Notes: a model not told the origin generated them from the sequence alone. A stretch of DNA of 64,000 nt from Parcubacteria group bacterium Licking1014_17 (GCA_007376485.1 VMGJ01000003.1:81252-145251); one strand, 5' to 3'; shown: positions 1,288-59,873, numbered from the stretch's first letter. Numbers and translations are program-made.

Positions 1288-1430
1288 AGGGTTAATACAT
1301 TTTTCGGGCTGTTTAGGTTGCCGCCAGCATGGTCTTGTCAATGACTTTATGTCTTGACAAGGGGTGGCAACCTAACCAGATGGATTTTCTTCGCTGGAGA
1401 AAATCCAGTCCCGAAAAGTGTATTAACCGA
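1288..1430 (+). ncRNA. Structured element copy A. An outer stem encloses two internal hairpins (three-way junction). It is related to 10086-10238 and 36383-36530
   Basis: P1 is aatacatttttcggg paired with cccgaaaagtgtatt. P2 is tttaggttgcc paired with ggcaacctaa. P3 is tggattttc paired with gaaaatcca, with a conserved loop tcgctgg. There are compensatory changes relative to copy C. Confidence 0.4.
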
Positions 1431-6094: not shown

Positions 6095-7272
6095 TAATAA
6101 TATCTTAACGCTTCCAGGGCGGGCAGTTTTTCGCCGCCCAAGAAAATCAGCATTGCTCCTCCGCCGATTGAAACAAAACTGTATTTTTTCAGTAAGCCGA
6201 GTTTTGTAACTTCGCTGATTGTGTCTCCTCCGCCGATAATTGAATTTTTGGCGGCCGCCACAGCTTCCGCGATTTTCCGTGTCCCCTCCGCGAATGCCTC
6301 GGTCTCCGAAAGCCCCATCGGCCCGTTCCAGATAACCATTCCTGCTTTACCGATAAAATCTGCGTACTTCGCGGCGGTTTTCGTGCCAATGTCTAAAATC
6401 ATTTCCTCGCCCGCCACCTTGTCCGCGTCTTTTATTTCGGCTTTGGAAACTGCGAGCGTATCGGGAGCCGTTACCACGTCTTCGGGAATAACAACTTTAC
6501 TCATATCCAAACCCTCCAGTGAATTTATATCTTCCGCGTCAATTAAAGATTTCCCGACTTCCAGCCCTTTAAATTTTAGAAAATTATTAGCGAGCGCTCC
6601 ACCGATTAAAATCCGCTCGGCTTTATCTAGAAAATGTTTTACCACCGGCAGTTTGGTGGAAATTTTCGCTCCGCCGAGAACCAAAACCTTGCCTTCAGCC
6701 GGCGCCTGAATCGCCCGCGAGAGATTTTCTATTTCGTCCTTCATCAAAAATCCAGCGTAAGAATCAATATATTTTGTTATCGCCGAAACCGAAGCGTGCT
6801 TTCTGTGGGCGACGGCGAATGCGTCATTTACGTAAAAATCAAAGCCCTTCGGCTCACTTCGTTCGCTCAGGGCAGGCCCTTTGGCCAGTTGTTGGGCAAA
6901 GGCATCATCATTTTTTTCTTCGCCTTCATGTCTCCTGACGTTCTCCAATAAAACAAAATTGTGCTCATTTAGAGCTTCGACGACAGCAGGACCAACACAA
7001 TCAGAAACAAAAAATATTTCCTTGCCGAGAATTTCCGATATTTGACTTACAATCGGGCTGAAAGTTTCTATGTCAGTGATGTGGGATAAAAGCGCGACTT
7101 TCGCCCCGGCACCTAATAGATAATCTATTGTTTTCTGAACCGCCTGCACCCGATAGTCGCTTGAAATCCTGCCGTGTTCCACCGGTAAATTAAAATCCAC
7201 CCGAACGAGGATTTTTTTATTTGAAAGCTCCGACTGCGGCAGAGAGTCAATATATTTCATAGTTAAAATCAT
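6094..7272 (-). CDS. pgk: Phosphoglycerate kinase
   Basis: KKILVRVDFNLP N-terminus and a glycine-rich C-terminal domain. The real start is probably the Met at MKYIDS. Confidence 0.9.
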   Translation of the reverse strand: MILTMKYIDSLPQSELSNKKILVRVDFNLPVEHGRISSDYRVQAVQKTIDYLLGAGAKVALLSHITDIETFSPIVSQISEILGKEIFFVSDCVGPAVVEALNEHNFVLLENVRRHEGEEKNDDAFAQQLAKGPALSERSEPKGFDFYVNDAFAVAHRKHASVSAITKYIDSYAGFLMKDEIENLSRAIQAPAEGKVLVLGGAKISTKLPVVKHFLDKAERILIGGALANNFLKFKGLEVGKSLIDAEDINSLEGLDMSKVVIPEDVVTAPDTLAVSKAEIKDADKVAGEEMILDIGTKTAAKYADFIGKAGMVIWNGPMGLSETEAFAEGTRKIAEAVAAAKNSIIGGGDTISEVTKLGLLKKYSFVSIGGGAMLIFLGGEKLPALEALRYY

Positions 7273-8264
7273 AGCAGATTATTTGTATTAGTAATAATCT
7301 CCCTAATTTTGTAAGTATTCCCATGCTTCAATAGCCCAAGATATGAATTGATGGTCTCCGTTCTCGGATTTTCTCTGATTCTTTTCAGCATTCTTCTTTT
7401 TGTCGATGTTCTCAAAATTCTGTGGTCTGGAAAATTAACCCAGCCGAGAAAATCAACTCCTGAAGAAAGGGTTTTAACAAATATCTTCTGGGGATGCAAT
7501 CTTAAATCTAATTCTTGCTTTAAATATTCTCCAATCGGCTGAACAATTTGCTCAAGCCACAATCTATCCTCGGATAAAATCACAAAATCGTCGCAGTATC
7601 TGATGTAATGACGGATTTTTAGTTTGTGTTTAATAAATTGGTCAAATTTATTCATATAAATATTCACAAAAAGCTGCGATGTTAAATTGCCAAGCGGCAA
7701 GCCAATGTCTAAACGGCCCGAATTGAAACTGCCGACAACTTCTTTTAACAGCCAAATAACATTTTCGTCGGAAATATATCCTGAAATGATTTTAAGCAAA
7801 ATCGCATGGTTTATGTTGGCAAAGAATTTCCGGATGTCGCATTTCAAAATCCAGCAGGTTCTTGTATTGTTCCGGCTGACTTTACGCGCGAAATAACGAA
7901 AACGATTCAGAGCTTTGTGAGCGCCTTTATTTAACCGGCAGGAAAAAGAATCGGAAATAAATATTCTATCAAAAAATGGATATAGGATTTTATAAATCGC
8001 GTGGTGCAATAGACGATCTCTGACGCTTGCTTTGTGGATATTTCTCGGCTTCGGGTCGCAGATATTGAATGCCTCATAATTTCCGTGTTTGTATGTATGG
8101 TTTACTAAATCTCGGTGCAATTCCAAAATATTATCCATTAAATTAAACTGGAATTCCTGAACATCCCGCCTATGCCTTTTACCACGTAAAAATTCTTTCC
8201 ATGCTTCCAAAATATTCTCAATGCTGATAATATCTTCAAAACTATGAGCCAATTTGATTTTCAT
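7269..8264 (-). CDS. DGR reverse transcriptase (cassette 1)
   Basis: RT domain with YCDDF (the YxDD box) and LPLGNLTSQ, the [LIV]GxxxSQ motif that separates DGR RTs from group II intron RTs (QGxxxSP). There is an adjacent TR and an Avd-like gene. Confidence 0.85.
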   Translation of the reverse strand: MKIKLAHSFEDIISIENILEAWKEFLRGKRHRRDVQEFQFNLMDNILELHRDLVNHTYKHGNYEAFNICDPKPRNIHKASVRDRLLHHAIYKILYPFFDRIFISDSFSCRLNKGAHKALNRFRYFARKVSRNNTRTCWILKCDIRKFFANINHAILLKIISGYISDENVIWLLKEVVGSFNSGRLDIGLPLGNLTSQLFVNIYMNKFDQFIKHKLKIRHYIRYCDDFVILSEDRLWLEQIVQPIGEYLKQELDLRLHPQKIFVKTLSSGVDFLGWVNFPDHRILRTSTKRRMLKRIRENPRTETINSYLGLLKHGNTYKIREIITNTNNLL

Positions 8265-8648
8265 AAAAACAACCCTTTAAGCCCCCCCCCCAAGATCTTA
8301 CCCTTACTTCAAAAGATAAAAGATATGTATTTATTGTGGTATGAATACTATCAGGTATTACCCAAACCGCATAGATATACTCTCGGTCAAAGAATTGATT
8401 ATTTGCTGGTAGAAATCATAGAAGCAATAGCTACTGCCGCTTTTTTGATGCGTGAAGAAAAAATACCGTATGTTCGTTTGGCAGTCAGGAAAGTTGATGT
8501 TTTGAAAATACTCTTAATGATACTTTGGGAAACCAAATCTCTGGGCGATAAAAAATATATAGCCCTCTCATTAAGAATTGACGGGATAGGCAAAATGCTC
8601 GGCGGTTGGCATGGCCAGCTACAAAAACAAAACTCCCCTGCTAAATAG
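8244..8648 (+). CDS. avd: Avd-like accessory protein (four-helix-bundle / 23S-IVS protein family), divergent from the RT
   Basis: 134 aa carrying HRYTLGQRI...IGKMLGGW, characteristic of the PF05635-type bundle. It starts MSQFDFHKNNPLSPPP, with the PPP encoded by a C10 tract. Confidence 0.8.
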   Translation: MSQFDFHKNNPLSPPPKILPLLQKIKDMYLLWYEYYQVLPKPHRYTLGQRIDYLLVEIIEAIATAAFLMREEKIPYVRLAVRKVDVLKILLMILWETKSLGDKKYIALSLRIDGIGKMLGGWHGQLQKQNSPAK

Positions 8649-8668: not shown

Positions 8669-8803
8669 TTTGCGACGGGTGAATACCCAGCGGTCGTTGC
8701 CATTCCAGAAGTTATCAGGGTTGCCGTTGTTACCGTTGAGCCACAGGTCATCGTCATTGCGTTCGACGTTGAACACCTTGAGGTTGCCGTCCGAGTCCGT
8801 AAT
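8669..8803 (-). repeat. DGR template repeat TR1
   Basis: 135 bp, identical in register to 9137-9271 except for at least 24 positions. Every one of those is T on the plus strand, that is A in the minus-strand template. In the VR frame it encodes AAC-rich NGNNGNPDNFWNGN. Confidence 0.85.
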
Positions 8804-9057
8804 ATGTACAAGATACCTCCCTTGTCACCACCCCTTGAATACTCTTGGGGTTGTATCGTATTCGGCATCGTAATGCCATAGTATCTTATACCAAGTAGCT
8901 TCATTTTTTGAAGTATCTATATACACCACTCTATCTGAAACCGTAATCGCAGATATTCTCGATGTATGGATACTGGGTTCGGTAGTTGGAAACCTTGGTC
9001 TCCATCATATTCACCTACTGCCGTTTCCATTTTACACGACAAATGCACAAAACAAAA

Positions 9058-9133: not shown

Positions 9134-9799
9134 CTACTTGCGACGGGCGAATACCCAGCGGACGCGGCCAAACCAGAAGACACCAGGGCGGCCGATGCTA
9201 CCGTCGAGCCACAGGTCATCGTCACGGCGTCCGACGTAGAACACCCCGAGGTAGCCGCCCGAGCCCGCAATCGGCTCCATAGCAATCGGGAGCCCCTCGC
9301 CCTTAGGCTGGTCTTTGTATTGCAAACGCAGCTGAGGACCGACTTCGTTGGGGCAGAGCTGGAGACCGAGACTAAGTGCCCGCTCGTAGATGTCCTTGCG
9401 GGTGGCACCGTCTTTGAAGCCAATCTCAGCGACACTGACGTTCACCAGTCCGATTGAGGTTTTCTTGGGGCTTACCTTGAAATCAGGTCCGCCGAGGGTA
9501 TAGTTGCCCCAGTCGCCGATGCGGAAGCCGCCGTTCTTGAGGGCTTCACGGAACTTGCAAGCGTCCGCAAGCCCAGTGCCCAACTTGACGGTCTTCCAGA
9601 TCGGAAAGTTAACCGCTCCGATAACCTGGGGACGCCCGCCATTCTTGAGGAAGGCGGTGAAGCGGCTACCGAACTCGGCGGATGAAAGGTTGATGACTTC
9701 GACCTGGAGCTTGTCTCCATCGAGCTCATCCCAGTTAATCTGGGTTGCGACTCGGGCCGAGATTTCGAGAGCTTGACCGCGTGATACGGCTTTACTCAT
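9134..9799 (-). CDS. DGR variable (target) protein 1. It is cytoplasmic, about 221 aa, with the VR at the C-terminus
   Basis: SD AAAGGAGAAA 7 nt before the ATG (MSKAVSRGQ). The C-terminus ...GRRDDDLWLDGSIGRPGVFWFGRVRWVFARRK is encoded by VR1. Confidence 0.8.
   Translation of the reverse strand: MSKAVSRGQALEISARVATQINWDELDGDKLQVEVINLSSAEFGSRFTAFLKNGGRPQVIGAVNFPIWKTVKLGTGLADACKFREALKNGGFRIGDWGNYTLGGPDFKVSPKKTSIGLVNVSVAEIGFKDGATRKDIYERALSLGLQLCPNEVGPQLRLQYKDQPKGEGLPIAMEPIAGSGGYLGVFYVGRRDDDLWLDGSIGRPGVFWFGRVRWVFARRK
9137..9271 (-). repeat. DGR variable repeat VR1
   Basis: See TR1. The VR runs through the stop codon of the target gene. Confidence 0.85.
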
Positions 9800-9925
9800 T
9801 GTCGTTTCTCCTTTTTCTGCCAGAGGGCTACTATCCGTAGTCATAGCCAGGAAATTCCGATAAATCAGGATCTCCTGGCTATGACTACAATCGCAAGAAG
9901 TATTAAAGAGCGACATTATGTTCTA

Positions 9926-9954: not shown

Positions 9955-9962
9955 CACACCAC

Positions 9963-9987
9963 AAAACCCTCATTCTATAAGGGTTTT
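9963..9987. terminator. Hairpin aaaaccct-cattctata-agggtttt, probably the terminator of the upstream dedA-GT2 unit. An identical copy lies at 36268-36292
   Basis: Stem flanked by T-runs, and the same sequence sits upstream of target gene 2. Confidence 0.4.
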
Positions 9988-10085
9988 TCATGTAAAACAA
10001 GCCATTGTACTTTGAGGGTTACTGAAGTTGTCGCCCCATCCTCATTAAAACTTCAGAGGGTAAAGCAGTATTTGTACAGTCCAGG

Positions 10086-10238
10086 CTGGAATGTCTTTTC
10101 GGCCGCTTAGAGGCTATGGATTGCTTGGTCGGCAATAGTATAATATCTGGCGTATAGCCAACTATTGCCGAATCCACAGCCTCTAGCGAGTGAGATATTC
10201 CGCCGGAGAATCTTGAACGTGCCGAAAAGACATTCCGG
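10086..10238 (+). ncRNA. Structured element copy B (three-way-junction family)
   Basis: The outer stem ctggaatgtcttttcggc / gccgaaaagacattccgg contains a T-G wobble that is only compatible on the plus strand. It has a long internal imperfect hairpin and a second small hairpin with loop cgccgg. Confidence 0.4.
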
Positions 10239-10275
10239 TCGGACGGGTAGCCCCGAAAAGCGCAATGGCGAGTTT

Positions 10276-30998: not shown

Positions 30999-31034
30999 AA
31001 CATGAGCCTATAACCTAGGTTATAGGCTCATGTT
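30999..31034. promoter_or_regulatory. Perfect 36-bp palindrome (aacatgagcctataacc-t-aggttataggctcatgtt) about 15 bp upstream of the csoR start. It is a candidate operator and/or bidirectional terminator
   Basis: Read directly. Confidence 0.45.
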
Positions 31035-33591: not shown

Positions 33592-34590
33592 CTATATCAT
33601 CGGATTCCCCAAATTGGCAATAATTCCCCTAAGTTTGAAAGTATTCCCATGTTTCAATAGCCCCAAATATGAATTGACAGTTTCTGTTCTCGGATTTGCC
33701 TTGATTCTTTTCAATATTCTTCTTTTTGTTGACGTCCTCAAAATCCTGTGATTTGGGAAAGTAATCCAGCCGAGAAAATCAATGCCCGAAGAAAGAGTCT
33801 TAATAAATATCTTTTGGGGATGCAATCTTAAATTTAATTTTTGTTCCAGATATTCGCTAACTGGTTGGATAATTTGTTCAAGCCATGGCTTATTTTCGGA
33901 CAAAATCACAAAATCATCGCAATATCTTATGTAATAGCGAATTTTCAGTTTGTGTTTAATAAATTGGTCAAATTCATTCATATAGACATTCACCAAAAGC
34001 TGCGAAGTCAGATTGCCGAGCGGCAGACCGATGCCGAAGTAGCCCGAACTGAAACTGCCAATAACTTCCTTTAACAACCAAATAATGTTTTCATCGGGAA
34101 TATATCTTGAAATGATTTTCAATAAAATCGTATGGTTAATATTGGCAAAGAATCTTCGGATGTCGCATTTCAAAACCCAGCAGGTTCTTGTGTTGTTCCG
34201 GCTGACTTTACGCGCAAAATAACGAAAACGATTTATAGCTTTGTGTGTGCCTTTATTTAATCGGCAGGAAAATGAATCGGAAATAAACGTTCTATTAAAA
34301 AATGGATACAATATCCGGTAAACCGCGTGGTGCAACAGCCGGTCACTGACGCTTGCCTTGTGAATATTCCTCGGTTTCGGGTCGCAGATATTGAATGCTT
34401 GATAATCGCCATGCCTATATGTATGATTTACCAAATCTCGGTGTAATTCCAAGATATTGTCCATTAAATTAAACTGGAATTCCTGAACGTCCCGCCTGTG
34501 TCTTTTGCCCCGCAGAAATTCTTTCCATGCTTCCAAAATGTTCTCAATACTGATAATATCTTCAAAATTATGAGCCAATTTGATTTTCAT
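33592..34590 (-). CDS. DGR reverse transcriptase (cassette 2). The ORF track extends it to 34767, but the homologous start is MKIKLAH at 34590
   Basis: About 88 percent aa identity to RT1, with the same YCDDF and LGNLTSQ motifs. Confidence 0.85.
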   Translation of the reverse strand: MKIKLAHNFEDIISIENILEAWKEFLRGKRHRRDVQEFQFNLMDNILELHRDLVNHTYRHGDYQAFNICDPKPRNIHKASVSDRLLHHAVYRILYPFFNRTFISDSFSCRLNKGTHKAINRFRYFARKVSRNNTRTCWVLKCDIRRFFANINHTILLKIISRYIPDENIIWLLKEVIGSFSSGYFGIGLPLGNLTSQLLVNVYMNEFDQFIKHKLKIRYYIRYCDDFVILSENKPWLEQIIQPVSEYLEQKLNLRLHPQKIFIKTLSSGIDFLGWITFPNHRILRTSTKRRILKRIKANPRTETVNSYLGLLKHGNTFKLRGIIANLGNPMI

Positions 34591-34982
34591 AAAAATAGCC
34601 CTATAAGCCCCCCCCCAGGGTTTCGTTGCCGATATTACAAAGGTTGGTTTCGGCATACAAGCTGTGGCATGAACATCTGTCGCATTTTCCCAAAACCTCA
34701 CGATATACGCTCGGCGGGAAAATTGACAGCTATTTTGTAGACGCCGTCGAAGCGATTCACACCGCAAGTTATCTTGGCAAATCAGAGAAACTCCCTTGGA
34801 TCAGGCGCGCGATAACAAAACTTGATGATCTGAAATTCTTTTTGCAAATCGCTTGGGAACTCAAGGTATTGGATAACAAAAAATACATAGCACTTTCCGA
34901 GCCGCTGGCCGAAATTGGCCGAATGCTGGGCGGATGGATGCGGCAAACGGAGTCGGCAAAAACAAAACCGAACCTGTTATAG
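34498..34982 (+). CDS. avd: Avd-like accessory gene (cassette 2). It appears frameshifted at a C9 tract. The N-terminus MSQFDFHKNSPISPPP (frame A) and the body from 34626 (frame -1) are rejoined by one extra C
   Basis: The body carries SRYTLGGKI...IGRMLGGW. The poly-C is at 34608-34616. Confidence 0.7.
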
Positions 34983-35002
34983 GTTCGGAGAAACTTTGCT
35001 TA

Positions 35003-35126
35003 CTTGCGGCGAGCGAGGAACCGGCAGTCGCCGTCCCACTTGTTACCGAGGTAATTGAGGTTCGCGTTCCGCTCGTTGGCGTTCCTGTAGACGTACACGA
35101 CGTTCCGGTTGCCGTTGCGGTCCTGC
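35003..35126 (-). repeat. DGR template repeat TR2
   Basis: At least 17 mismatches to 35478-35602, all at plus-strand T (minus-strand A) positions of the TR. Confidence 0.85.
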
Positions 35127-35384
35127 TGTGTGCACGGTACCATCTATGCCACTATCCTTTGAATACTCTCGGGACTGAATCGTATTTGGGAGCATAACTC
35201 CGCCAGTACCGTACACCAAGTAGCTTTGTTTTTTGAGATACTGTGAAAATCACTGGCCGGAGGCGTACCCACGGCCACTCCGTTTTACGCAGTTCTGGAA
35301 TTCGGCCGTTTGCAGTCGTAACCGCAAACATATCAGCCTATTATCCGTGATTTACTATACTCACTATTTTCAAAAATGAAAGAG

Positions 35385-35420
35385 CGCCTCGTCCGGAAGA
35401 CCCGAACGAGGCGCAAGAGT
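35385..35420 (-). terminator. Hairpin plus T-tract about 65 nt downstream of VR2 (the target 2 terminator, or a homing hairpin)
   Basis: gcgcctcgt...acgaggcgc stem followed by TCTTTCATTTTTG on the minus strand. Confidence 0.45.
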
Positions 35421-35468
35421 CCAAGGCACTCAAGATCTTGAAGACCTGAGCGCGCAAGGACCCAAGGA

Positions 35469-36113
35469 CTACTTCTGCTTGCGGCGAGCGAGGAACCGGC
35501 AGTCGCCGTCCCACTCGCCACCGAGGTAATCGAGGGACGCGCACCGCTCGTCGGCGTGCCTGCAGACGAACACGACGCACCGGCTGCCGTGGCGGTCCTG
35601 CCAGTGCTGGCCGATGGCCGGGATCGGGAACTCCCGCTGGAGCTCCGGCTTCTCGGCGCCGACGGTCAAGTCCTCGTAGGCGTCGGCGGGCTCGAGGTCG
35701 AGCTTCGCCAGCTCGGTGAGCACCTGCTCGTCGCTCATGTCTCGCCCGAAGTGGACGAGGACGAGGTCGCTCTTGACCCTGCCCTTGAGGCGCGGCGGGA
35801 AGTTCTTGGCGTTGACGTTGCCGTTCTTCCAGTCGTACTTCCCACGCTTGAGCAGATCGGCTATGTCCTCGTCGTAGTCGATGACGTGGCAACCGAGCTT
35901 GGTGATCGTGGGGTCAGGGTAGATCGGGGCGAGGCCGAGGACCTTCCGCAGGGCGTTGCGCTCGGGCAACGTTCCCTGCTTCGAAGCCTCAATCACGTCG
36001 GCGACGATTCCGCTATCGAGCAAGTCCGCCTGGAACTTCTCCACAGTCAGTCCCTTGTCGTTGGCAAGCCGGACAACTTCATTTCCTTGGGCGAGCGTCA
36101 CGTTGTTGGCCAT
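35469..36113 (-). CDS. DGR variable (target) protein 2. It is cytoplasmic and 214 aa. The whole gene is markedly GC-rich relative to its neighbours
   Basis: SD GAAAGGAGGG before the ATG. The C-terminus ...CRHADERCASLDYLGGEWDGDCRFLARRKQK is encoded by VR2. Confidence 0.8.
   Translation of the reverse strand: MANNVTLAQGNEVVRLANDKGLTVEKFQADLLDSGIVADVIEASKQGTLPERNALRKVLGLAPIYPDPTITKLGCHVIDYDEDIADLLKRGKYDWKNGNVNAKNFPPRLKGRVKSDLVLVHFGRDMSDEQVLTELAKLDLEPADAYEDLTVGAEKPELQREFPIPAIGQHWQDRHGSRCVVFVCRHADERCASLDYLGGEWDGDCRFLARRKQK
35478..35602 (-). repeat. DGR variable repeat VR2
   Basis: See TR2. Confidence 0.85.
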
Positions 36114-36382
36114 GACACCCTCCTTTCCTTTGTGGCTATGGAACCACCATAAGCTCCGACGGAATGTCGGTACTCACAGCGTTCCGGTTGCTGATTTTGC
36201 AGGTAAAATCAAGGTACTATGATACCCTATATTATACTAAACTTTACGACAAAAAGCAAGGACACAAAACCCCTCATTCTATAAGGGTTTTTTAATATAA
36301 AGCGAGTCATTATGCTTTGAGGGCTCAAAAAGCACAATAGCGAGACCGCCTAAATTTTGCTTCACAAAACTTGAGCGGGCTT

Positions 36383-36530
36383 GCCAATATGCTTTTTGGG
36401 GCTGTTGAGATTGCCGCTGGTACGGTTTTGTCAATGGCTGAACGAAGTGAACGCCTTGACAAACAGCGGTAATCTCACCAGATGAAATTTTCTCGCTGGG
36501 GAAATTTCAGTCCCCAAAAAGCATATTGGC
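36383..36530 (+). ncRNA. Structured element copy C (three-way-junction family)
   Basis: P1 is gccaatatgctttttgggg / ccccaaaaagcatattggc. P2 is tgagattgccgctg / cagcggtaatctca with a G-T wobble on the plus strand. P3 is tgaaattttc / gaaatttca with the conserved loop tcgctgg. Stems covary with copy A. Confidence 0.4.
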
Positions 36531-36536
36531 AAGTAT

Positions 36537-48426: not shown

Positions 48427-48546
48427 ATTGGTCTGGCGGCTACCCACTTTCGCAGTCATACGACCACTATCATAGGCCTTGATGGATTTCACTTCTGAGT
48501 TCGGAATGGGATCAGGTGGGACACCATCGGTATAGTCGCCAAGCCA
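48427..48546 (-). rRNA. rrf: 5S ribosomal RNA
   Basis: The minus strand reads ...CCCACCTGATCCCATTCCGAACTCAGAAGTGAAA... with a helix-I closure. Confidence 0.85.
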
Positions 48547-48983
48547 ATGTTTTTTATTACACGGCAAACAATGTCGCCTTAATGGCAACAGAATAAATTG
48601 GACACTCAACCTTGTAAGGAAATACAGACGATCTATTAGTAACTCTTGGCTCAAAGCCTTGCGGCTCTTACACCTGAGTCCTATCAACGTGGTAGTCTTC
48701 CACGGATCTGCGAAGCCTAATCTTGGGGCCCGTTTCGCGCTTATATGCTTTCAGCGCTTATCGGAACCGAACATAGCTGCCCAGCGCTGCCCTTGGCAGG
48801 ACAACTGGTAGACCAGAGGTTCGTTCATCCCGGTCCTCTCGTACTAGGGACAACCCCCCTCAAGCTTCTAACGCCCACACCAGATAAGGACCAACCTGTC
48901 TCACGACGGTTTGAACCCAGCTCGCGTACCCTTTTAATTGGCGAACAGCCAAACCCTTGGCAGCTTCTTCACCGCCAGGATAG

Positions 48984-49862
48984 GGCGCACATTTATCTTC
49001 TATTACTAGAAGTGCAGACTATATCTTCTCCCGTCTTCCAATCGAAAGGTGGGAGTTGGCGTATTATAGCAGTTAAAAAACTGCTATCCTCTCGCAATAG
49101 CGAGAAAGTCGTTACGGGGTAAGAGAAACTTTATACAATAGACTATCTAAAATATACGGCTTGATGATTTCACAAAACTTTTGCGATGATCTTTCCGGAA
49201 TATATATGTTGAATGTTTTACCCTTTTTATGGATTGCCGCTACGATTCCGAAATTCATCTTCAGACAATCCACTAGCATTTGCTGTTCTTGATACGAAAA
49301 TATATCCGTATTAAGTCTCAGCGCATTACAATCGTTCCGTTTATATCCGTCGTCCATTACCCAAACCGCCAGCGATAATGGTTCAATAAGAATTTCTTGA
49401 ATATTATCAGGAACTATTTTGATTCTATTCTTGTAAAACATATCCCGCCATTCCTGAAATATTCCGTTTGAACATGTCGAGAAATGTAACCGCCTGTATT
49501 CTTTATTCTCTTTCTTGTGGAACGAAGTGATAACTCTGGGCTTACTTGGCACAAGGTTTTTAAATACTTCATATTTCCATAATACATACTCCTTCTGTGC
49601 CATGCCGTGGTCTACTTTTAGACGCACGCCCTTGCCATTTTGCTCCAGATGCCCGTCGCCGAGCATTGTTCCAATTAATATCGCTTTTTGTGTTGCCGTT
49701 AATAGCATACTGTATAAAGCCTCTCCTACTTCCCACGATATTATCCTATCATAGCTGGGTAGCCTCTAATAGGACTCCATCGTTATTAGCCAACGTTGCA
49801 AGTTTATTTCTTAAAAGACACAAACTTGCCAACTCGAATTACTTCGAGTACGGCCCGTTTTG
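48984..49862 (-). mobile_element. Intron-like insertion (putative group I intron) in 23S domain V. It interrupts GATGTCGGCTCA | (T)ATCCTGG and carries a LAGLIDADG gene
   Basis: The exon sequence is contiguous with E. coli-like 23S on both sides, and the boundaries were located by eye. Confidence 0.6.
49112..49708 (-). CDS. LAGLIDADG homing endonuclease (two-motif, monomeric type)
   Basis: [11 protein letters not shown] and [10 protein letters not shown] motifs. Confidence 0.85.
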
Positions 49863-50172
49863 TTGAGCCGACATCGAGGTGCCGAACACTGCCGTCGCTA
49901 TGGACGCTCGGGCAGTACCAGCCTGTTATCCCCGGAGTAGCTTTTATCTGATGATCTTCCCCGTTCCTACGAACAAGGGTCGGTTCACTAACACCTGCTT
50001 TCGCATCTGCTTGACACATCCGTCTCACAGTTAAGCCGGCTTATGCGTTTGCACTATCGCTCCGATTTCCATCCGGAGCTAGCCGACCTTCGTACGCCTC
50101 CGTTACTCTTTAGGAGGCAACAGCCCCAGTTAAACTGCCCGCCAGACACTGTCTTGATGGCACCCTAGAAGG

Positions 50173-50474
50173 GGACGAGTAAACTCGTCCGAGCATCCTG
50201 TAATATTCGTTCAAATATCACAGGATGTTATAGATTATGAGCATTAAAGAATCTAATCTCATTTTTTTGATCGCTGATACAGGTCAGAAAGAGTTTTTCA
50301 TCCCCAAAACAAAAGGGTTGTAAACTCCTGTCGCCTATGTTTTTCAACACCGCATTGGCGACATGTTTCTCTAGATCCGAACTTTCAAAATCAAACTTTA
50401 TCTGCTGTGTTCGGACTTCTGGCCCGCCTTCACATTTATTAAAGTGAAGTTTCAGAAGTATCATTTTATTTCCT
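50173..50474 (-). other. About 300-nt insertion in the terminal loop of a 23S domain-V helix. The arms are ggtggcaccctggaagg and ccttctagggtgcc. It contains an SD-led ORF plus two 3' hairpins
   Basis: The helix arms are perfectly complementary and flank the insert, and the equivalent E. coli helix is a short hairpin. Confidence 0.5.
50228..50464 (-). CDS. Small ORF of 78 aa from the SD-proximal ATG, embedded in the 23S helix-loop insertion
   Basis: GGAAGGAGGAAATAAA-ATG. The ORF ends just before two stable hairpins. No recognisable domain. Confidence 0.4.
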   Translation of the reverse strand: MILLKLHFNKCEGGPEVRTQQIKFDFESSDLEKHVANAVLKNIGDRSLQPFCFGDEKLFLTCISDQKNEIRFFNAHNL

Positions 50475-50770
50475 CCTTCCAGGGTGCCACCAGTTAGAAT
50501 TACAAATGACAAAGATGGGTGTTTCATTGGCGGATCCACGCCTCCCGAAAGAGGCGCTTCAAATCCTCCCCACTACGCTACGCATTGCCGCTCGTAACCC
50601 AATATCAAGCTACAGTAAAGCTTCCGGGGTCTTTCCGTCTTGGTGCGGGTAGTCAGCATCTTTACTGACATTGCATTTTCACCGGGCTAGTGGCTGAGAC
50701 AGTCCCCCAGTCGTTACGCTATTCATGCGCGTGGGAACTTACCCCACAAGGTATTTCGCTACCTTTGGAC

Positions 50771-51522
50771 AGTTCATTCTTTTTATTAGTCTCGGCGGAT
50801 TCAATAAACTCGCCACCGGACAGCCTCATAGTCGCCTATGAGATCGGACTCTATCTTATCGCAATTTTTTGCGATTCTGACGTATTAGTCTCTGGGGATT
50901 CTCGAGATTTTTGGTAATCAGAAAGAGAATATTTTCGCTTCCTGCCCTTACCTTCATTTAACTTCTCTCTTAATTCAATAATTTTTTCAAGACCCTCACG
51001 GGTAAAATGTTTGCCATTCGAGATGGTCTCAACGATTCTTTTGAATATCGAGAAGTTTGTTTTCTTTGAAGATGATAAAAAATTATATCTTTCAAAGAAT
51101 GGCACAATGATATCTCTCAATGAGTTTAGATTATTCACTGAATAATTCCAAACTCCATCTTTTCTTAACTCTAACCTTCCTGCCCCGAAATGTTTTTTCA
51201 TTAACGCCAGGACTGTCTGATCTCTTTGAGCCACATTGAAGGTCAAATAGATTTTCCAGCCAAAGCGGTAGTCATTCCTGGGAATTAACGAAACATTGAA
51301 GCTACCTTCACCATCCACAAAACCGGTAAAATACCAAGCTGTCGAGATGGGAATTTGTTTAATAACTTCTTTCATTTTGTTTAGAGTCTCGAGTCTTTCC
51401 TGCGGATTATCTGCACTGATGTTTTATTACTGATCTTCGACGTTCGGATCTAGTAACATCAGATACTAACCAGACTTTCCCGCATATAGTCAGATTTTAC
51501 AACTACAACTGTCGTTATAGTT
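50771..51522 (-). mobile_element. Intron-like insertion (putative group I intron) in 23S domain IV at the helix-69 region. It interrupts GGTAACTATAACG | GTCCAAAGGTAGCG, near E. coli position 1917, and carries a LAGLIDADG gene
   Basis: Exon junctions were read directly. Confidence 0.6.
50851..51375 (-). CDS. LAGLIDADG homing endonuclease (single-motif, homodimeric type)
   Basis: FTGFVDGEGSF motif. Confidence 0.85.
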   Translation of the reverse strand: MKEVIKQIPISTAWYFTGFVDGEGSFNVSLIPRNDYRFGWKIYLTFNVAQRDQTVLALMKKHFGAGRLELRKDGVWNYSVNNLNSLRDIIVPFFERYNFLSSSKKTNFSIFKRIVETISNGKHFTREGLEKIIELREKLNEGKGRKRKYSLSDYQKSRESPETNTSESQKIAIR

Positions 51523-52554
51523 ACCGCCGTCGTTCACGGGTGCTTCGGGCATCTGCAATGAGCTTGCGCCCACCACTTCAACCGTTAACATTCCCGCACC
51601 GGACAAGCGTCACCCCGTATACATCCTCTTTCGAGTTAGCACGGAGTTGTGTTTTTGATAAACAGTCGCCAGGGGTCTTTCGCTGCGTCCGCGCTTGCGC
51701 GCGGAAGGCCTTATCGCTAACTTACGGCCGCTTTTTTGCCGAGTTCCTTAGCCACTAATCACCCGTTCGCCTTGGTACAATCATACCGGTCCACCTGTTT
51801 CGGTTTTAAATACGTACCCAATCCTTTTGTCTTTAGAAGTTTTTCTTGGAAGCGCGCTCCCTTGAATTTCACCTTGCGATGATTTCCACAACGCTTGGGT
51901 TTCGCACTGAAGCGGCGACACGGATTTGCCAATGTCGCACCCTTACGCCATGAACGCAAATCCTTAATGCGCTCAGGGTACTGCATTTCGTCTCTCCATC
52001 AGAAAGGACCGGGGGGCCGGAATATTAACCGGCTATCCTTCGGCCTCCCCCGCCCGCAAGCGGGGTTATCCTTAGGCACGCCTAACCCTCCGTTGATTGT
52101 CATTGCGGAGGAAATCTTGGACTTTCGGCGAGAGGGGTTTTCACCCTCTTTGCGGTTACTCATCCGAGCATTCTCTCCTCCAAGCGCTCCAGCATGTCTC
52201 ACGGCACACCTTCACTGCGCTTGAAGTGCTCCCCTACCGTATGGAGACTTCGTAAAGGACTTAAGAATAAAAATTCTTAAGAAAAAAAAATGGACGGCGA
52301 GGAAGTAACTATGGTATCCAGGCACCACCAAGGACTTGCCCGGTCCCGGAACCCCACTTTTATACGTGAGGTTCTTAAGTTGGACTTTTAGGGAGCAGTA
52401 GCCATGGTTTAGCGGTCCGCGATAGTTAACTTCCTCGCTTATTTTTCCTTTACGAAATCTCCACACCCACGCATTCGGTACTATGCTTAGCCCCGTTGAA
52501 TTTTCGGCGCATCTTGCCTCGCACGGCCGAAGCCGTGTATCGAATAGTAAGCTG

Positions 52555-52596
<42 letters not shown>

Positions 52597-53227: not shown

Positions 53228-53270
<43 letters not shown>

Positions 53271-55121: not shown

Positions 55122-55282
55122 ACCTCCTTTCCTTTTTTTCTTTAATCTCCATAACCAAAGGCAATAAAAAACGCTCCCCTATATTTTAACATTAAAAGAA
55201 AGAAAGCTATCCACAGAGACATACAGGGGGGCGGCCGTTCCGGCCGCCCCCCTGTATTTTACAATTCGGAAATAATAAAAGT

Positions 55283-57337
55283 TCAAATCAAAAATCTCGC
55301 TATCAGCAGCGCCACGATGTTTGCTACCTTAATCATCGGATTGATCGCCGGTCCCGCCGTGTCTTTGTAGGGGTCGCCGACTGTGTCGCCTGTCACCGCC
55401 GCCTGGTGGGCGGGGGATTTTTTGCCGCCGAAGTTCCCTTCCTCAATATATTTCTTGGCGTTGTCCCAGGCGGCGCCGCCGGAAGTCATTGATATTGCCA
55501 TAAACAAACCGGTGATAATTACGCCAACCAACAGACCACCCAACGCTTGTGGTCCCAGCAGAAAGCCGACAGCGATGGGAATTACGATTGGAATCAAGGC
55601 GGGGATTATCATTTCTTTCAAAGCCGCCCTGGTAACAATATCTACCGCCGCCGCGTAATCGGGTTTTCCCGTCCCCTCCATTATGCCGGCGATTTCCCTG
55701 AACTGCCGGCGCACTTCTTCAACTATCGCGCTACCGGCTTTGCCCACCGCCTTCATCGCCATCGAGCCGAAAAGATAAGGCATCATGCCGCCGATTAATA
55801 AACCGATTAAAACCGAAGGGTTAGTCAAATCAAAACTGATGGGCGCTCCGGCGCCGGCAAATTCTTGGGTGTAAGCCGAAAACAAAACCAGAGCCGCCAG
55901 TCCCGCCGAGCCGATAGCATAACCCTTGGTTACCGCCTTGGTAGTATTACCCACAGCGTCCAACGGATCCGTCGCCTGCCTTACTTCTTCCGGCAGGTTA
56001 GCCATCTCGGCGATGCCGCCGGCGTTATCCGTAATGGGACCGAAAGCGTCAATTGCCAAAACTATCGCCGCCAGCGAAAGCATGCTCAAAGTAGCCAGCG
56101 CCACTCCGTACACGCCGACAAAAATATATGAGCCGAGTATCGCCGCGCAAATCACCACCACCGGCCAGACCGTTGACCGCATGGAAACCGCCAGCCCGGC
56201 GATGATATTTGTGCCGTGCCCGGTCTTGGATGCTTCGGCAATCCCCCGCACCGGTGAGAATTTTTTTGAAGTGTAATAATCCGTAATCCAGAAAATCAAG
56301 CCGGTAACCGCCAGTCCTATTATCAGGGCCAGAAATATTCTATAGCCGGCGATTTCGCCCAGCACCGGTTTCCAGACCAACGTCACGTAAAAAGAAGCGA
56401 CAGCCAGTATCGCTGTAAGAATCAGTCCCTTGTACATTGAACCCATAATACCCCCGTTCGGCCCATTCGATGGACTCAGGGCAGGCAGGCTCGGGGCAAG
56501 CACCTTGGGACCCAATTTTACAACCAGCGAACCTACAATTGACGCCAGCACGCCGATAGCGCCGATAAAAAGCGGAAAGGTAATTATATTCGCGATTGAA
56601 GAATAAAGTAGATTGCCCAGAAGCATTACCGAAATCGTAGAGACCAGATAAGTTTCAAAGACATCCGCCGCCATGCCTGCTGTGTCGCCGACGTTGTCGC
56701 CTACGTTGTCAGCAATGACCGCCGGATTGCGCGGGTCGTCTTCCGGAATTCCGGCCTCAACTTTGCCGACCAAATCCGCGCCGACATCCGCGCCCTTCGT
56801 GTAAATCCCCCCGCCAAGGCGGGCAAAAACCGAAATCAGCGAACCGCCAAAGCCCAAACCAATCAAGGCGGTTACGTCTTTAGTGAACCAATAAAATAAA
56901 GTCAGAACCAGAAGCCCGAGGCCGACCACGAAAAAGCCGGTTACCGCCCCGCCGCGGAAAGCCAGATTGAAAGCGTTGACGATGCCCGATTTTGCCGCTT
57001 CCGCTACCCGCACGTTCGCCCGCACCGCCACAAACATCCCGATATAGCCGGCGAGCGCCGAAGCCGCCGCGCCCACAATAAACCCAATTGCCGTGGTTAC
57101 GCCCAGAAATATATACAGGATTATCGCTACCAAAATGCCGACGACGACTACGACCTTATACTGCCTTTTCAGATAGGCATTCGCTCCTTCGCGGATTGCC
57201 TGCGAGATGGACTTCATCTTTTCATCCCCCTGCGGTTGTTTCAAAACGTTAAGTATCAAAACCGCCCCGTAAACCAGCGCCGCCAGAGCCGACGCCAAAG
57301 AAAAAATTAAAATAGTCATATGGATTAAAACTAACAA
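55283..57337 (-). CDS. hppA: Membrane-bound proton/sodium-translocating pyrophosphatase
   Basis: [14 protein letters not shown] and other V-PPase signature segments, about 16 TM. Confidence 0.9.
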
Positions 57338-58356
57338 ATAGATATCTTTTTTTCCAGTTTTGACTCCATCGCTTTCTGAATATTATAACCGCAACAATGT
57401 TTCAAAACTCCCAGATAAGATTGTAAGTTATCGGTGTTAACTTTTTTCAAAATTCTTCTTCTTGTTTTTGTTCTCAAATTTACGCAGTATGGTCTGACAA
57501 TATAACCCAGAAAATCAATTCCCTGCCGGTATTTTCTAATGATAATTTTTTGCGGATGAAGATTTAATTGTAATATATTATTCAGATAATTGCCGACTAA
57601 AAACGATAATTCGTATAAATAATTTTTATCTTCGCTTAAAATAATAAAATCATCGCAATATCGGAGATAAAATTTCAATTTCAGATGGTGTTTTACAAAC
57701 TCATCCAACTCATTCAAGTATATATTCGCGAATAGCTGGCTTGTCACGTTGCCGAGTGGTAATCCTTTGTCAATATCTTTTTTAAAACTACTAATAATAA
57801 CTCCCAACAGCCAGAGTACGTTTTCGCCGTGAATCTTTCTTTTTATTAGACCAACTAGAATTTCGTGATCTATCGAATCAAAAAATCTCTTGACATCGCA
57901 TTTCAAAGCAAAAATATTCCTGCTGTTGTTTCTGCTCAATTTGCGGCAAAAAGATTTTAATCTCCTGATTCCTCTATACGTGCCTTTTCCCAGCCGACAA
58001 GAATAAGAATCAAAAATAAACCCAGCATCAAAAATTGGATAAAGAATCCTGAAAACGGCGTGATGCAGGATTCTATCTCTAACTGTGGCCTTATGAATGT
58101 GCCGAAGCTTTGGGTCAGTGATGCAAAAAGATTCGTATGGTGAGTGCTGATAAATCTTGGCTGATAGTTGATTGTGTAACCCAAATAGGTTATCTTCCAG
58201 ATTAAATTCGAATTCTAAAATGTCGCGTCTCTTCTTCTTTCCACGCCTAAATTCTTTCCACGCTAAAAACAAATTTTCCAAACTGATTATTTCTCCAAAT
58301 AAATCATGACTCTTATAAGCCCCCCCCCAAAAAAAAACTCCATACCTTTGATTCAT
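57331..58356 (-). CDS. DGR reverse transcriptase (cassette 3). The start is ambiguous, and the ORF as drawn reads through a T9/G9 homopolymer
   Basis: RYCDDFIIL and LPLGNVTSQ motifs. Confidence 0.8.
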
Positions 58357-58671
58357 AGTATTTGCGATTTATACAGGAAAATATATCTTGTCGGACTTAA
58401 AATCCCCAAAAGAGACAGGCTGGGAATTTGCGCAAAAATTGAATCTATATGCCTTGATTTAATAAACTTACTAATTTCAGCCGCTTTTGAATCTAAAGAT
58501 AGGAAATTGTCTTTTCTTACTATTGCTCGTGTTAAAACAGAAATTCTAAAAAGATTGGTCCGGCTTGCGCATGAAATTGACGTAATCAAATCAGTTAATT
58601 ATATAGAATTGGAATCGCAATTGCAGGAAATATCAAAAATGATAAATGGCTGGATCAAATATTTAAAGTGA
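58306..58671 (+). CDS. avd: Avd-like accessory protein (cassette 3)
   Basis: 121 aa, [10 protein letters not shown] encoded by a C9A9 tract, with a C-terminal ...EISKMINGWIKYLK. Confidence 0.8.
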   Translation: MTLISPPPKKNSIPLIHSICDLYRKIYLVGLKIPKRDRLGICAKIESICLDLINLLISAAFESKDRKLSFLTIARVKTEILKRLVRLAHEIDVIKSVNYIELESQLQEISKMINGWIKYLK

Positions 58672-58700
58672 GAAAAACTCCCTAAGGAGTTTTTCTCACA

Positions 58701-58824
58701 AAACTACCTGACGGGCACGGAGGTTGTCGTTGGCATTGCCTGTGTTGTTCCAGTTCACGTTGACCTTGTCATCGCTGTTCCGATACATGTTTGGCACGTC
58801 GCCATCCTTGTTGCGAGAACCCGC
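58701..58824 (-). repeat. DGR template repeat TR3
   Basis: 124 bp at a constant offset of 410 from VR3. At least 20 mismatches, all at plus-strand T positions of the TR. It is AAC-rich in the VR frame. Confidence 0.85.
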
Positions 58825-59034
58825 CTTGGTACCTGACCTCATCTTTCCCACCGAAAATCTTGGAAAAATTTTCTGTGTTGGCTGGCTCCATGGCCAGAAT
58901 TATTCAAGAAACATCTCTAGTTAGAGAATCTTCACCAAGATCAGGCACGTAGTTTCTCTGTTTCAGGCAAACCGCTATCCACTTGGGATCGGTTATAATA
59001 GCCGGGTCTATTCTACAAAAATATAGCAAAAAGA

Positions 59035-59066
59035 GAAAGGCCCGCATCAGTCAGCCACTGCGGGCC
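59035..59066 (-). terminator. Hairpin plus T-tract downstream of target gene 3
   Basis: aggcccgca...tgcgggcct stem followed by TTCTCTTTTTGC on the minus strand. Confidence 0.45.
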
Positions 59067-59102
59067 TTATAAAAAGCGAACGAGAAAAAAGGAATAAGAG
59101 AA

Positions 59103-59873
59103 CTACAGAGAAACTACCTGACGGGCACGGAGGCGGCCGCTGGCAAGGCCTGTGAGGTCCCAGCTCACGTAGACCCTGACATCGCTGCCCCGATACATGA
59201 CAGGCACGACGCCATCCTTGTGGCGAGAACCCGCACATAAAGTTACGTTCTTATTGTCGAGATGGCCACTGGTCTTCCAATTGAACCATCGCCCAAGAAG
59301 AAGCCTTTCAAGAAGATTTATACTATTGATTTTCTTCTCCGCGACCCAACTGGCGGAGAGATTCTTGAGCTCTTCGTCAGCCTCTACGCGGTCACGCGTC
59401 CAGATAACGTAGGGCTTGCCGACGGGCATCCTGACGTTTTTTGTGACGACTTCATCCAAATTAGCATCACAAAATTTCCATTTCTCCGGGAACGAATCGA
59501 AAACCATCTGCATTGTCACACCGGGAACAACCAGCACACCCCAATTAAAACCGGGGGTTACTGGGGGCAGGGGAATTTGCGATGTTTTTCGGATTCTGAT
59601 GTTAAGCGCCTCCTTATAGAAATCCGCCCAGTCCTTCAGGAAGGATTTAACATCCAGCCCCGAGGTGGCATAGGTGATGCCTCCGTTGTCCTGATTAGTG
59701 GCTGTAGTTACGTCACCAACCAGTACGATTTCTGCCTCGCCGCGAAGGGCTTTGAGATGTTGACTGGCAATATTGCCACCACTCAGCTTTTTCACGTCTT
59801 CTGGCGTCCACCCCCCACGCTCAAAAGCGTGATCCAGCTCGGCTGCCTGTCGACTTGTCATAATTGATCCCAT
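59103..59873 (-). CDS. DGR variable (target) protein 3. It is cytoplasmic and 256 aa
   Basis: SD AGGAGA before the ATG. The C-terminus ...GSRHKDGVVPVMYRGSDVRVYVSWDLTGLASGRLRARQVVSL is encoded by VR3. Confidence 0.75.
   Translation of the reverse strand: MGSIMTSRQAAELDHAFERGGWTPEDVKKLSGGNIASQHLKALRGEAEIVLVGDVTTATNQDNGGITYATSGLDVKSFLKDWADFYKEALNIRIRKTSQIPLPPVTPGFNWGVLVVPGVTMQMVFDSFPEKWKFCDANLDEVVTKNVRMPVGKPYVIWTRDRVEADEELKNLSASWVAEKKINSINLLERLLLGRWFNWKTSGHLDNKNVTLCAGSRHKDGVVPVMYRGSDVRVYVSWDLTGLASGRLRARQVVSL
59111..59234 (-). repeat. DGR variable repeat VR3
   Basis: See TR3. Confidence 0.85.

Follow-up and report, generated by a model that had tools for sequence, protein, structure and literature searches.

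Results

Organization of the DGR Cassettes

The window considered here, i.e., the whole stretch of 64,000 nucleotides that was analyzed (GCA_007376485.1, VMGJ01000003.1:81252-145251; positions are counted from its first letter), is chromosomal DNA from the metagenome-assembled genome of Parcubacteria group bacterium Licking1014_17, a small, gene-dense bacterium of the Candidate Phyla Radiation (CPR). It contains three complete cassettes of diversity-generating retroelements (DGRs), all on the minus strand and together spanning 52 kb, each with a target gene, a template repeat (TR) and variable repeat (VR), an avd gene and a reverse transcriptase (RT) gene. Judged from their sequences, cassettes 1 and 2 are a mosaic: the common ancestor of the two RTs is much more recent than that of the avd genes, TRs and targets. 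The cassettes are embedded among housekeeping genes (pgk, recA, ftsK, an H+-pyrophosphatase gene and rmuC), and genes for 23S rRNA, 5S rRNA and RNase P RNA were found in the window as well.

Self-comparison of the window revealed the three TR/VR pairs, in which every difference corresponds to an A in TR (24/24 in cassette 1, 16/16 in cassette 2 and 20/20 in cassette 3; 60/60 in sum). RVT_1 and bAvd domains adjoin the TR/VR pair in 3/3 cassettes (Pfam; bAvd E = 1e-12 to 1e-15), the motifs LGNLTSQ and YCDD can be read in the RT translations, VR is located at the 3' end of the target open reading frame (ORF) in all three cassettes, and the nearest RT relatives in other genomes likewise adjoin Avd genes and TR/VR pairs. 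Each TR/VR pair ends in a GC-rich invariant stretch, and a GC-rich hairpin is found 3' of targets 1 and 2. The avd gene is on the plus strand in every cassette, head to head with the RT gene, while RT, TR and target occupy the opposite strand; the order target, TR, inverted avd, RT was the same in 7/7 Patescibacteria loci from other genomes with readable gene order. Along cassettes 1 and 2, the layout reads as promoter and target with C-terminal VR, terminator, structured RNA element, TR, terminator, inverted avd, and finally a run of G residues (G-run) followed by RT. Gene order, G-run and the structured element upstream of TR are the features that cassettes 1–3 and the loci from other genomes share as an inverted-avd layout of Patescibacteria DGRs, with the element being only weakly alignable in cassette 3. 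A preliminary description of this DNA had recognized the cassettes but omitted the avd inversion, the TR-upstream element (8823-8911 versus 35147-35236, 76%) and the run of 9–10 G residues (G9-10) at the start of the RT block. Cassettes 1 and 2 can be classified as two complete DGRs of the Patescibacteria type, and both look active or recently active.

As the TR/VR differences are adenine-specific, ordinary mutagenic retrohoming would be expected for each cassette: TR RNA would be copied by an RT-Avd complex with errors at adenines, and the resulting cDNA would replace VR. The template RNA would be a short transcript composed of TR-upstream element, TR and post-TR hairpin, and RT and avd would be expressed divergently from the region around the G-run. 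A terminator-like hairpin is positioned directly after every TR, ahead of the inverted avd (~8625-8660, 34968-34988 and 58668-58699; the tail is TTTTGTTTTTG in cassettes 1 and 2), which suggests a short, separate template transcript.

Cassette 1 (minus strand unless stated otherwise) includes RT1 (7269..8264; 331 aa, RVT_1 E = 1.4e-21), whose stop codon overlaps the pgk start and which is identical to NCBI protein P0001 (Parcubacteria group bacterium Licking1014_17). The RT1 start is overlapped by Avd1 (8244..8648, plus strand; bAvd E = 1.2e-12), a protein of 134 aa when read from ATG 8244 (107 aa in the NCBI version) that we assign to a lineage termed A1. TR1 (8670..8803) is 82% identical to VR1 (9138-9271), and the latter is part of target gene 1 (9134..9916; T1 family), with a coding capacity of up to 260 aa. 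Since the target 1 promoter (9926-9954; TTGACA-17-TATCAT, 11/12 consensus matches in a promoter scan) ends at 9926, the true start of target 1 is probably further downstream, near 9799.

Cassette 2 is likewise on the minus strand, with RT2 at 33592..34590 (332 aa from ATG 34590, RVT_1 E = 1.2e-23; the ORF call extends to TTG 34767) and Avd2 on the plus strand at 34626..34982 (118 aa, TTG start, bAvd E = 1.9e-13; lineage A2). The terminator-like hairpin identified by a terminator scan at 34968..34988 (minus strand, TTTTGTTTTT tail) lies directly 3' of TR2 (35003..35126), the latter 87% identical to VR2. Target gene 2 (35469..36113; 214 aa, T2 family) lacks a Pfam match and carries VR2 (35478-35601) at its C-terminal end. 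About 55 nt past its stop codon, the same scan reported a GC-rich hairpin (35384..35414, minus strand; 14 pairs, 10 of them GC), with a counterpart after target 1 (9057-9078), that may be a target terminator or a post-VR inverted repeat. The putative target 2 promoter (36231..36259, minus strand; TTGCTT, 17 nt, TATAAT) was recognized by eye and was not reported by the promoter scan, its -35 box matching at 3/6 positions. In both cassettes, the target promoter directly follows an upstream terminator hairpin.

Cassette 3 (57331..59873, minus strand) comprises RT3 (57331-58356), Avd3 (58306-58671, plus strand), TR3 (58701-58824) and target 3 (59103-59873) with VR3 (59111-59234), and is flanked by the H+-pyrophosphatase gene and rmuC. 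RT3 is 53-55% identical to RT1/RT2, and Avd3 27-31% identical to Avd1/Avd2.

Comparison of Cassettes 1 and 2

A sensitive comparison of both cassettes resulted in three nucleotide matches. The by far longest is the RT block, in which 7287-8290 and 33613-34616 align over 1,004 nt without a gap at 85.0% identity (151 differences). The other two are a 61-nt block upstream of the targets (9960-10018 versus 36263-36323, 85%) and the TR-upstream element (76% over 90 nt). The recently shared RT block (33613..34616 in cassette 2, minus strand) begins at the G-run and ends 18 nt short of the RT stop codon; its 5' edge is a run of nine G residues followed by CTTA (34608..34616, minus strand), 17 nt upstream of the RT2 ATG. 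As anticipated in the preliminary description, conserved flank is thus present beyond the RT coding region, namely the 26 nt upstream of RT and the 61-nt terminator block before the target. The two RTs, which had been called near-identical there, are indeed each other's closest relatives, but at 84.8% amino acid and 85% nucleotide identity they fall short of that label. Confirmed were also the common 25-nt hairpin AAAACCCTTATAGAATGAGGGTTTT, which is exact at 9963-9987 and carries one mismatch or a 1-nt insertion at 36267-36292 (0 matches in shuffled sequence), and the marked divergence of the Avd proteins, put at about 45% identity and measured here as 49.5% over 109 aa.

Aligned segment by segment, similarity above that of shuffled sequences was obtained for avd (0.64 versus 0.58 ± 0.01), the TR-upstream element (0.71 versus 0.59), the stretch from G-run to ATG (0.77) and RT (0.84), whereas TR, VR, target coding region, promoter and 5' untranslated region (UTR) were no more alike between cassettes 1 and 2 than shuffled controls. 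The earlier statement that TRs, VRs and targets are unrelated therefore holds at the nucleotide level, and T1 and T2 show no significant protein match either. It has to be softened in so far as comparison of the T1 and T2 family profiles gave E = 8.6e-4 and a probability of 24% across 132 colinear columns, such that the two families may be very distant homologues.

Separate Histories of the RT and of Avd, TR and Target

The synonymous sites of the two RT genes are unsaturated (dS ~0.4-0.75 at a nonsynonymous divergence, dN, of ~0.08), while dS is saturated for avd. At identical residues, RT1 and RT2 use the same codon in 198/271 cases (73%) compared with 20/51 (39%) for Avd1/Avd2 (Fisher p = 6e-6); the background of same-codon usage is 31-51% across 32 between-genome RT pairs. 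The best database match of RT1 is RT2 (84%), with every other match at 73% or below, and thousands of Patescibacteria RTs match RT1/RT2 at 63-73% identity. For the best 120 RTs, which belong to many candidate phyla, pairwise identity has a median of 69.6% and a 99th percentile of 79.7%.

The picture is different for Avd. Avd1 is 68-80% identical to more than 120 Avds from other genomes, and Avd2 59-81% to more than 120 as well. In neighbor-joining trees with 500 bootstraps, for which groupings are reported from 30% of replicates up, RT1 and RT2 were grouped in ~100% of bootstraps; Avd1 was joined in 100% with the Avd of a Giovannonibacteria locus (L013; loci from other genomes are numbered with the prefix L), to which it is 73.7% identical, and a grouping of Avd1 with Avd2 was absent among those recovered in at least 30% of bootstraps. 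In four loci of the Avd2 lineage (L006, L007, L008 and L010), identity of Avd to Avd2 stays within ~7 points of the identity of RT to RT2; the corresponding gap between RT and Avd identity amounts to 35 points for cassette 1 versus 2.

The targets follow Avd. In locus L013, the Avd1-type Avd is accompanied by a target that resembles T1 (34% over 130 aa, E = 6.5e-10). T2-like targets adjoin DGR RTs in L001, L007 and L010 (31-39% over ~136 aa, E = 1e-24 to 1e-34), and in L007 and L010 these targets (E = 1e-24 to 1e-27) occur together with Avd2-type Avds. Avd type and target type travel together across genomes, and the diversification modules are best described as two old, widespread lineages, one pairing an A1 Avd with a T1 target and the other an A2 Avd with a T2 target. 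Cassettes 1 and 2 are thus each other's closest relatives with respect to the RT, and are not so with respect to Avd, the targets or the long hairpins described below, as whole-cassette duplicates would be.

A second genome provides a comparable case. On contig CAYHZZ010000004.1 of GCA_964361385.1, two DGRs (L001 and L003) are located ~12 kb apart, with RTs that are 80.0% identical and sisters in 98% of bootstraps, Avds at 51.3% identity and different targets. At the nucleotide level, the two resemble each other in the RT block and, beyond it, only in a single 31-nt match within avd. The RT event in this genome would be older than the one in Licking1014_17.

We found no sign of ongoing conversion between RT1 and RT2, the longest identical run within the RT block being 29 nt at a dS of ~0.5. 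Base composition was also considered as a test of a recent import of module 2, and was rejected since GC-rich targets occurred in all six cassettes checked from other loci. Such targets (GC content at third codon positions, GC3, 0.55-0.89) stand beside AT-rich RT/avd genes (GC 0.33-0.46) in the window and in five other genomes, whatever the GC content of the host. In the window, GC content is 0.50-0.63 for the targets outside VR (9272-9799, 35602-36113 and 59235-59873), 0.34-0.37 for the RT genes and 0.33-0.46 for avd, with target GC3 values of up to 0.89 and a GC content of 0.476 ± 0.022 for host housekeeping genes. The same split in composition between target and RT/avd is seen in the five other genomes at host GC3 values of 0.28-0.66 (loci L001, L003, L007, L010 and L013).

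TR-Upstream Element, G-Run and Terminator Block

The element upstream of TR (8804..8925 and 35127..35250 in cassettes 1 and 2, both on the minus strand) is ~110 nt long and alignable in nine loci, with compensatory changes in 16 of the 24 predicted pairs. Besides the window copies, these are L001 5090-5217, L003 5350-5475, L006 1195-1320, L007 4152-4280, L009 1349-1485, L010 6551-6690 and L013 5537-5665. In the predicted fold, hairpins are enclosed by a long-range stem. When Rfam was searched with the whole window and, permissively, with cassette 2, neither this element nor the long hairpins gave a match. We regard the element as a conserved structured RNA of this DGR clade, probably as part of the DGR template RNA. 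Because it is clade-wide, its 76% identity between cassettes 1 and 2 is uninformative on the recency of their common ancestry.

Similarly widespread is the G9-10 run, which marks the start of the RT block in 10/10 loci, i.e., cassettes 1–3 (8282-8291, 34608-34616 and ~58320-58328) and seven loci from other genomes (L001, L003, L006-L008, L010 and L013), and is usually followed by CTTA. It precedes the RT start codon by 2-22 nt in 9/10 loci (17 nt in cassettes 1 and 2) and falls inside the called RT ORF in cassette 3. A role as ribosome-binding site or RNA element is conceivable for the run.

Among the flank elements, only the 61-nt terminator block is specific to the cassette 1/2 pair. The cassette 1 copy (9960..10018, minus strand) includes the hairpin 9963-9987, and the cassette 2 copy (36263..36323, minus strand) consists of a degenerate hairpin arm and the 25-nt terminator hairpin (36267-36292). 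A search with nhmmer detected no further copy in the 64-kb window. The exact 21-mer of the hairpin was found elsewhere once in genome_contigs and twice, with identical sequence, in metagenome_contigs, in no case near a DGR; by a rough estimate, this number of matches is about what chance would produce. The idea of the hairpin as a general DGR element was abandoned for these reasons, with three outside loci representing two distinct sequences, all in non-DGR contexts and at approximately chance number.

The Long-Hairpin Family

The intergenic regions upstream of targets 1 and 2 are both strongly structured (z = -10.9 and -9.4). Upstream of target 2, the order is E2, a hairpin, a short arm-arm hairpin and the terminator. 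E2 (36378..36535, minus strand; 187 bits with the covariance model) is a long structured hairpin that starts right after the ftsK stop codon and has perfect 22-bp outer arms. Upstream of target 1, the order is an outer arm, E1, a small hairpin, the partner arm and the terminator: E1 (10083..10244, minus strand), a divergent family member, is nested between the outer arm 10249-10275, which sits directly after the stop codon of a VTT-domain gene, and the partner of this arm in the 61-nt block. A third member, E3 (1288..1430, minus strand), was identified between a sugar-transferase and a glycosyltransferase gene with no DGR nearby. All three start 0-11 nt past the stop codon of the upstream gene; the genes preceding them encode predicted membrane-associated products, namely a sugar transferase (E3), the VTT-domain protein (E1) and FtsK (E2).

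The long hairpins measure 143-162 nt and have a four-helix layout with conserved loops and arms of 16-22 bp, at three copies per 64 kb. Between E2 and E3, which share 72% identity, 11 pairs are compensatory and no pair is broken. When a covariance model was derived from these two, without E1, it retrieved E1 at 47.1 bits (E = 2e-9). The three-way alignment, having been fitted to the model, has 97.9% of its cells paired and changes on both sides in 32/49 pairs. In the preliminary description, E1 and E2 were taken as copies of the same structured element; this is borne out in that they belong to one structural family, but they are only 44% identical, and E2 has a closer relative in E3, remote from any DGR. 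With E1 at 46% identity to E3, the DGR-adjacent copies are the most divergent pair, and we therefore conclude that they would not have been duplicated together with the RT.

The covariance model detected no long hairpin in twelve related or control loci from other genomes, and upstream of cassette 3 neither a long hairpin (covariance model) nor a 61-nt block (nhmmer) was found. No direct repeat indicative of a target-site duplication flanks E1 or E2, a possible CTACT is present at E3, and no transposase gene was seen among the examined ORFs of the window. As multiple copies with terminal inverted repeats, E1–E3 have the character of a dispersed repeat, and they are best understood as an older dispersed, genome-specific family of structured intergenic elements. 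A candidate for a fourth member at 54291-54407 folds well, but was discarded because it neither aligned to the family nor matched the model.

Further Observations in the Window

The 23S rRNA gene (48616-53900) spans 5,285 nt compared with 2,925 nt for the model and holds two ORFs for LAGLIDADG endonucleases (49112-49708 and 50851-51375); such an overlong gene with two internal LAGLIDADG ORFs suggests the presence of introns. The 5S rRNA gene is located at 48431-48543, no 16S gene was found beside the 23S gene, and the 64 kb contain no tRNA gene. At 475 nt, the match to RNase P RNA (3915-4389) is longer than the 367-nt model, a surplus suggestive of inserted helices. By its appearance, a series of short ORFs on the minus strand at 13-25 kb resembles a ribosomal-protein operon. 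A 65-nt leader occurs twice at 84.6% identity, at 1105-1169 (minus strand) and 26110-26174 (plus strand), directly before the start codons of a glycosyltransferase gene and of ssb, which are unrelated to each other. It contains an ACAGC...GCTGT hairpin and terminates in ACGGGATGA, and may represent a common regulatory motif of 5' UTRs. Finally, perfect or near-perfect intergenic palindromes of 28-37 nt (30999-31034, 54353-54380 and 55221-55257) are probably bidirectional terminators.

Discussion

The mosaic nature of cassettes 1 and 2 raises the question of which event brought two closely related RTs into the company of distantly related Avd, TR and target modules. As the most plausible scenario, to which we would tentatively assign a probability of roughly 45%, we propose an exchange of the RT block between cassettes of two old types. 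About 1.03 kb would have been copied from one resident cassette into the other, both types pre-existing at that time, by non-allelic recombination or gene conversion, and as a single event that is no longer recent (dS ~0.5). The copied tract would start with the G-run and end 18 nt short of the RT stop codon, with both of its ends in the most conserved parts of the RT region, i.e., the G-run with the N-terminal RT codons and the C-terminal motif. Copying of the RT block also fits the pair in GCA_964361385.1, which shares nearly the RT block alone. In the light of this, the proposal in the preliminary description, duplication of an RT-plus-flank module followed by exchange of TR and target, can be upheld as regards the mosaic history, which codon usage, trees and the identity of the RT block all support, and has to be given up as regards most of the flank being evidence for co-duplication. 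A swap of TR and target into a backbone that had been duplicated is not demonstrated by the data, and copying of the RT between two pre-existing cassette types fits at least equally well. Nor does avd form part of a conserved backbone, since Avd belongs to the divergent module.

Several points weigh against exchange of the RT block. The presence of the 61-nt block in the 64 kb before cassettes 1 and 2 only would link flank to RT and favors duplication of a larger island, as two random placements among ~60 intergenic regions would, by rough estimate, rarely both end up there. RecA-type conversion should be inefficient at an RT identity of ~68-70%. As the RT N-terminus and the G-run are alike in both Avd lineages and the RT tree does not sort by Avd lineage, they give neither the donor a name nor the copying a direction, and for the same reason the RT tree is no proof that cassette 2 formerly carried another RT. 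In GCA_964361385.1, the synonymous sites of the RTs are nearly saturated (0.54 versus a background of up to 0.51), so this replicate is carried by amino acid identity and bootstrap values. One also has to bear in mind that the evidence was drawn from 64 kb of the Licking1014_17 genome.

In a refined form of the proposal in the preliminary description, a whole DGR island, reaching from the upstream gene's stop codon as far as the RT end, was duplicated to a second intergenic site, and one copy subsequently received a new interior from another DGR lineage. The replaced interior would include promoter, target, TR-upstream element, TR and avd, leaving terminator block and RT as relics. This is a serious possibility, although we hesitate to adopt it. 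In its favor, pair-specific similarity is found at both island ends (the RT block on one side, the 61-nt block and arm-like sequence at the stop codon on the other), the 61-nt block is seen nowhere else in the window, its identity (85%) equals the value for the RT block, and the non-homologous interior, with the -35 box of the target promoter as one exact boundary and the G-run as the other, thus represents a complete functional module. Yet such a course of events requires a duplication and, in addition, a replacement that was precise and involved one or more illegitimate junctions. Membership in the dispersed family, one copy of which follows a stop codon away from any DGR, accounts for both the long hairpins and the arm at the stop codon, and the long hairpins next to the DGRs are the most divergent pair (44%). 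Moreover, the pair in GCA_964361385.1 has only the RT block in common, apart from the 31-nt avd match, and the high GC content of target 2 does not count as a sign of recent import.

One might also think of the long hairpin and terminator flank as a functional DGR component, for instance a regulatory RNA or the insertion or recombination site of a mobile island. The flank is positioned suggestively, with two of the three long hairpins and both 61-nt blocks directly upstream of DGR target promoters, and the hairpin family appears to be selected for structure (97.9% of cells paired, 32/49 compensatory). We nonetheless judge a DGR function of the flank to be unlikely, as E3 is placed between two glycosyl/sugar-transferase genes, cassette 3 has neither element, the long hairpin occurred in 0/12 related or control loci, the few exact hairpin matches outside are non-DGR and near the chance number, and neither a target-site duplication nor a recombinase gene was seen.

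Still less probable, in our opinion, is independent acquisition of the two cassettes, with RT likeness being due to strong clade constraint or closely related donors and no intragenomic event having taken place. It is true that the RT clade is unusually uniform (the median of 69.6% refers to 120 members from many candidate phyla) and that its RT genes are all atypically AT-rich, whatever the host. But constraint on the protein leaves the excess of identical synonymous codons (0.73 versus 0.31-0.51) unexplained, and the same applies to an ungapped block reaching 26 nt upstream of the ATG and to sharing of the 61-nt block; further, no RT in the database is closer than 73%, and the same-genome effect is seen again in GCA_964361385.1. 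Plain duplication of a cassette, after which diversifying selection would have driven avd, TR and target apart quickly without any exchange of parts, accounts for the identical architecture and for the RTs being each other's closest relatives, and Avd does evolve somewhat faster than RT across the clade when distant lineages are compared, but the Avd and target data from other genomes would exclude such simple duplication and divergence and leave it with a very small residual probability: Avd1 and Avd2 are each closer to more than 120 Avds of other genomes (59-81%) than to each other (49.5%), Avd1 goes with the Giovannonibacteria Avd in 100% of bootstraps, target families track Avd lineages in other genomes, and synonymous sites are saturated in avd and unsaturated in RT.

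An exchange of the RT block bears resemblance to concerted evolution of paralogues by gene conversion, as known for duplicated tuf genes or rRNA operons. Common to both is that one segment of dispersed loci is much more alike than its surroundings and that the tract edges are in conserved sequence. The case of cassettes 1 and 2 differs in that there is no sign of ongoing homogenization and that the prior identity of the partners, ~70%, is low for RecA-dependent conversion.

The long hairpins, in turn, call to mind ERIC, REP/BIME and elements of the MITE (miniature inverted-repeat transposable element) type, which are dispersed palindromic intergenic repeats. They are likewise non-coding imperfect palindromes of ~140-160 nt in multiple copies, found in intergenic regions after genes on the transcribed strand, with copies nested or adjacent and with terminal inverted arms (a perfect 22 bp in E2). 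In contrast to ERIC or MITE sequences, no target-site duplication or matching transposase was found for them, and they have conserved loops, four helices, compensatory changes and no Rfam match. This suggests that the family is a functional RNA rather than a simple repeat.

Compared with the DGR of Bordetella phage BPP-1 (mtd-avd-TR-brt), the studied prototype, the cassettes show the same adenine-specific differences, VR at the 3' end of the target, Avd as a four-helix-bundle partner, an RT motif of the LGxxxSQ type and a GC-rich invariant 3' stretch of VR/TR. They deviate from it in the inversion of avd between TR and RT, as a consequence of which the RNA 3' of TR could not be a spacer of the BPP-1 type, and further in the terminator-like hairpin after TR, the structured element before TR, the G9-10 run before RT and a chromosomal instead of a phage location. 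Concerning the fold of the targets, and thus a possible location of VR in a C-type-lectin or Ig-like fold, no Pfam match and no sequence relative in the PDB was found, and a single-sequence AlphaFold model of T2 was too low in confidence to be used (mean pLDDT 39.5).

Chromosomal DGRs of Patescibacteria/CPR are known as "DGR clade 2" (Roux et al. 2021, PMC8144416) or the "CPR set" (Wu et al. 2018, PMC5758913), and their targets were reported to be small and without a recognizable domain (PMC8144416, PMC5758913). The cassettes described here are ordinary members of this known kind, being chromosomal, situated between housekeeping genes of a Parcubacteria host, and provided with small, domain-less targets. 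What sets them apart is the presence of three cassettes within 52 kb and a pair of RTs that are far more alike than their Avds. The parts of a DGR have usually been treated as co-evolving, with the RT tree serving as a proxy for the history of the cassette (Wu et al. 2018, PMC5758913). The cassette 1/2 pair and the pair in GCA_964361385.1 are exceptions to such co-evolution between RT on the one hand and Avd and target on the other, which is a modest point. We found no report of RT homogenization among co-resident DGRs in the literature, a survey to which the CPR study of Paul et al. 2017 did not belong.

With regard to the reading of such loci in general, the present case illustrates that a conserved flank is not always a sign of duplication, as it turned out here to include one clade-wide structured RNA beside TR and one genome-specific structured repeat. 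By its sequence, the cassette 1/2 pair shows that, inside a single genome, an RT can become separated from the history of Avd, TR and target. An RT-based classification of genomes with multiple DGRs may therefore be misleading, and cross-compatibility of RTs with foreign Avd/TR modules becomes a sensible experiment, with a bearing on the engineering of DGRs. One may go further and speculate, though we consider this a somewhat unlikely generalization at present, that the RT of Patescibacteria with multiple DGRs is an exchangeable genome-level part that is repeatedly copied or homogenized among co-resident cassettes, with avd-TR-target, together with its own structured RNA ahead of TR, representing the heritable specificity module. 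If this were true, one RT would serve different Avd/TR partners, and specificity would reside in Avd and the RNA, not in the RT.

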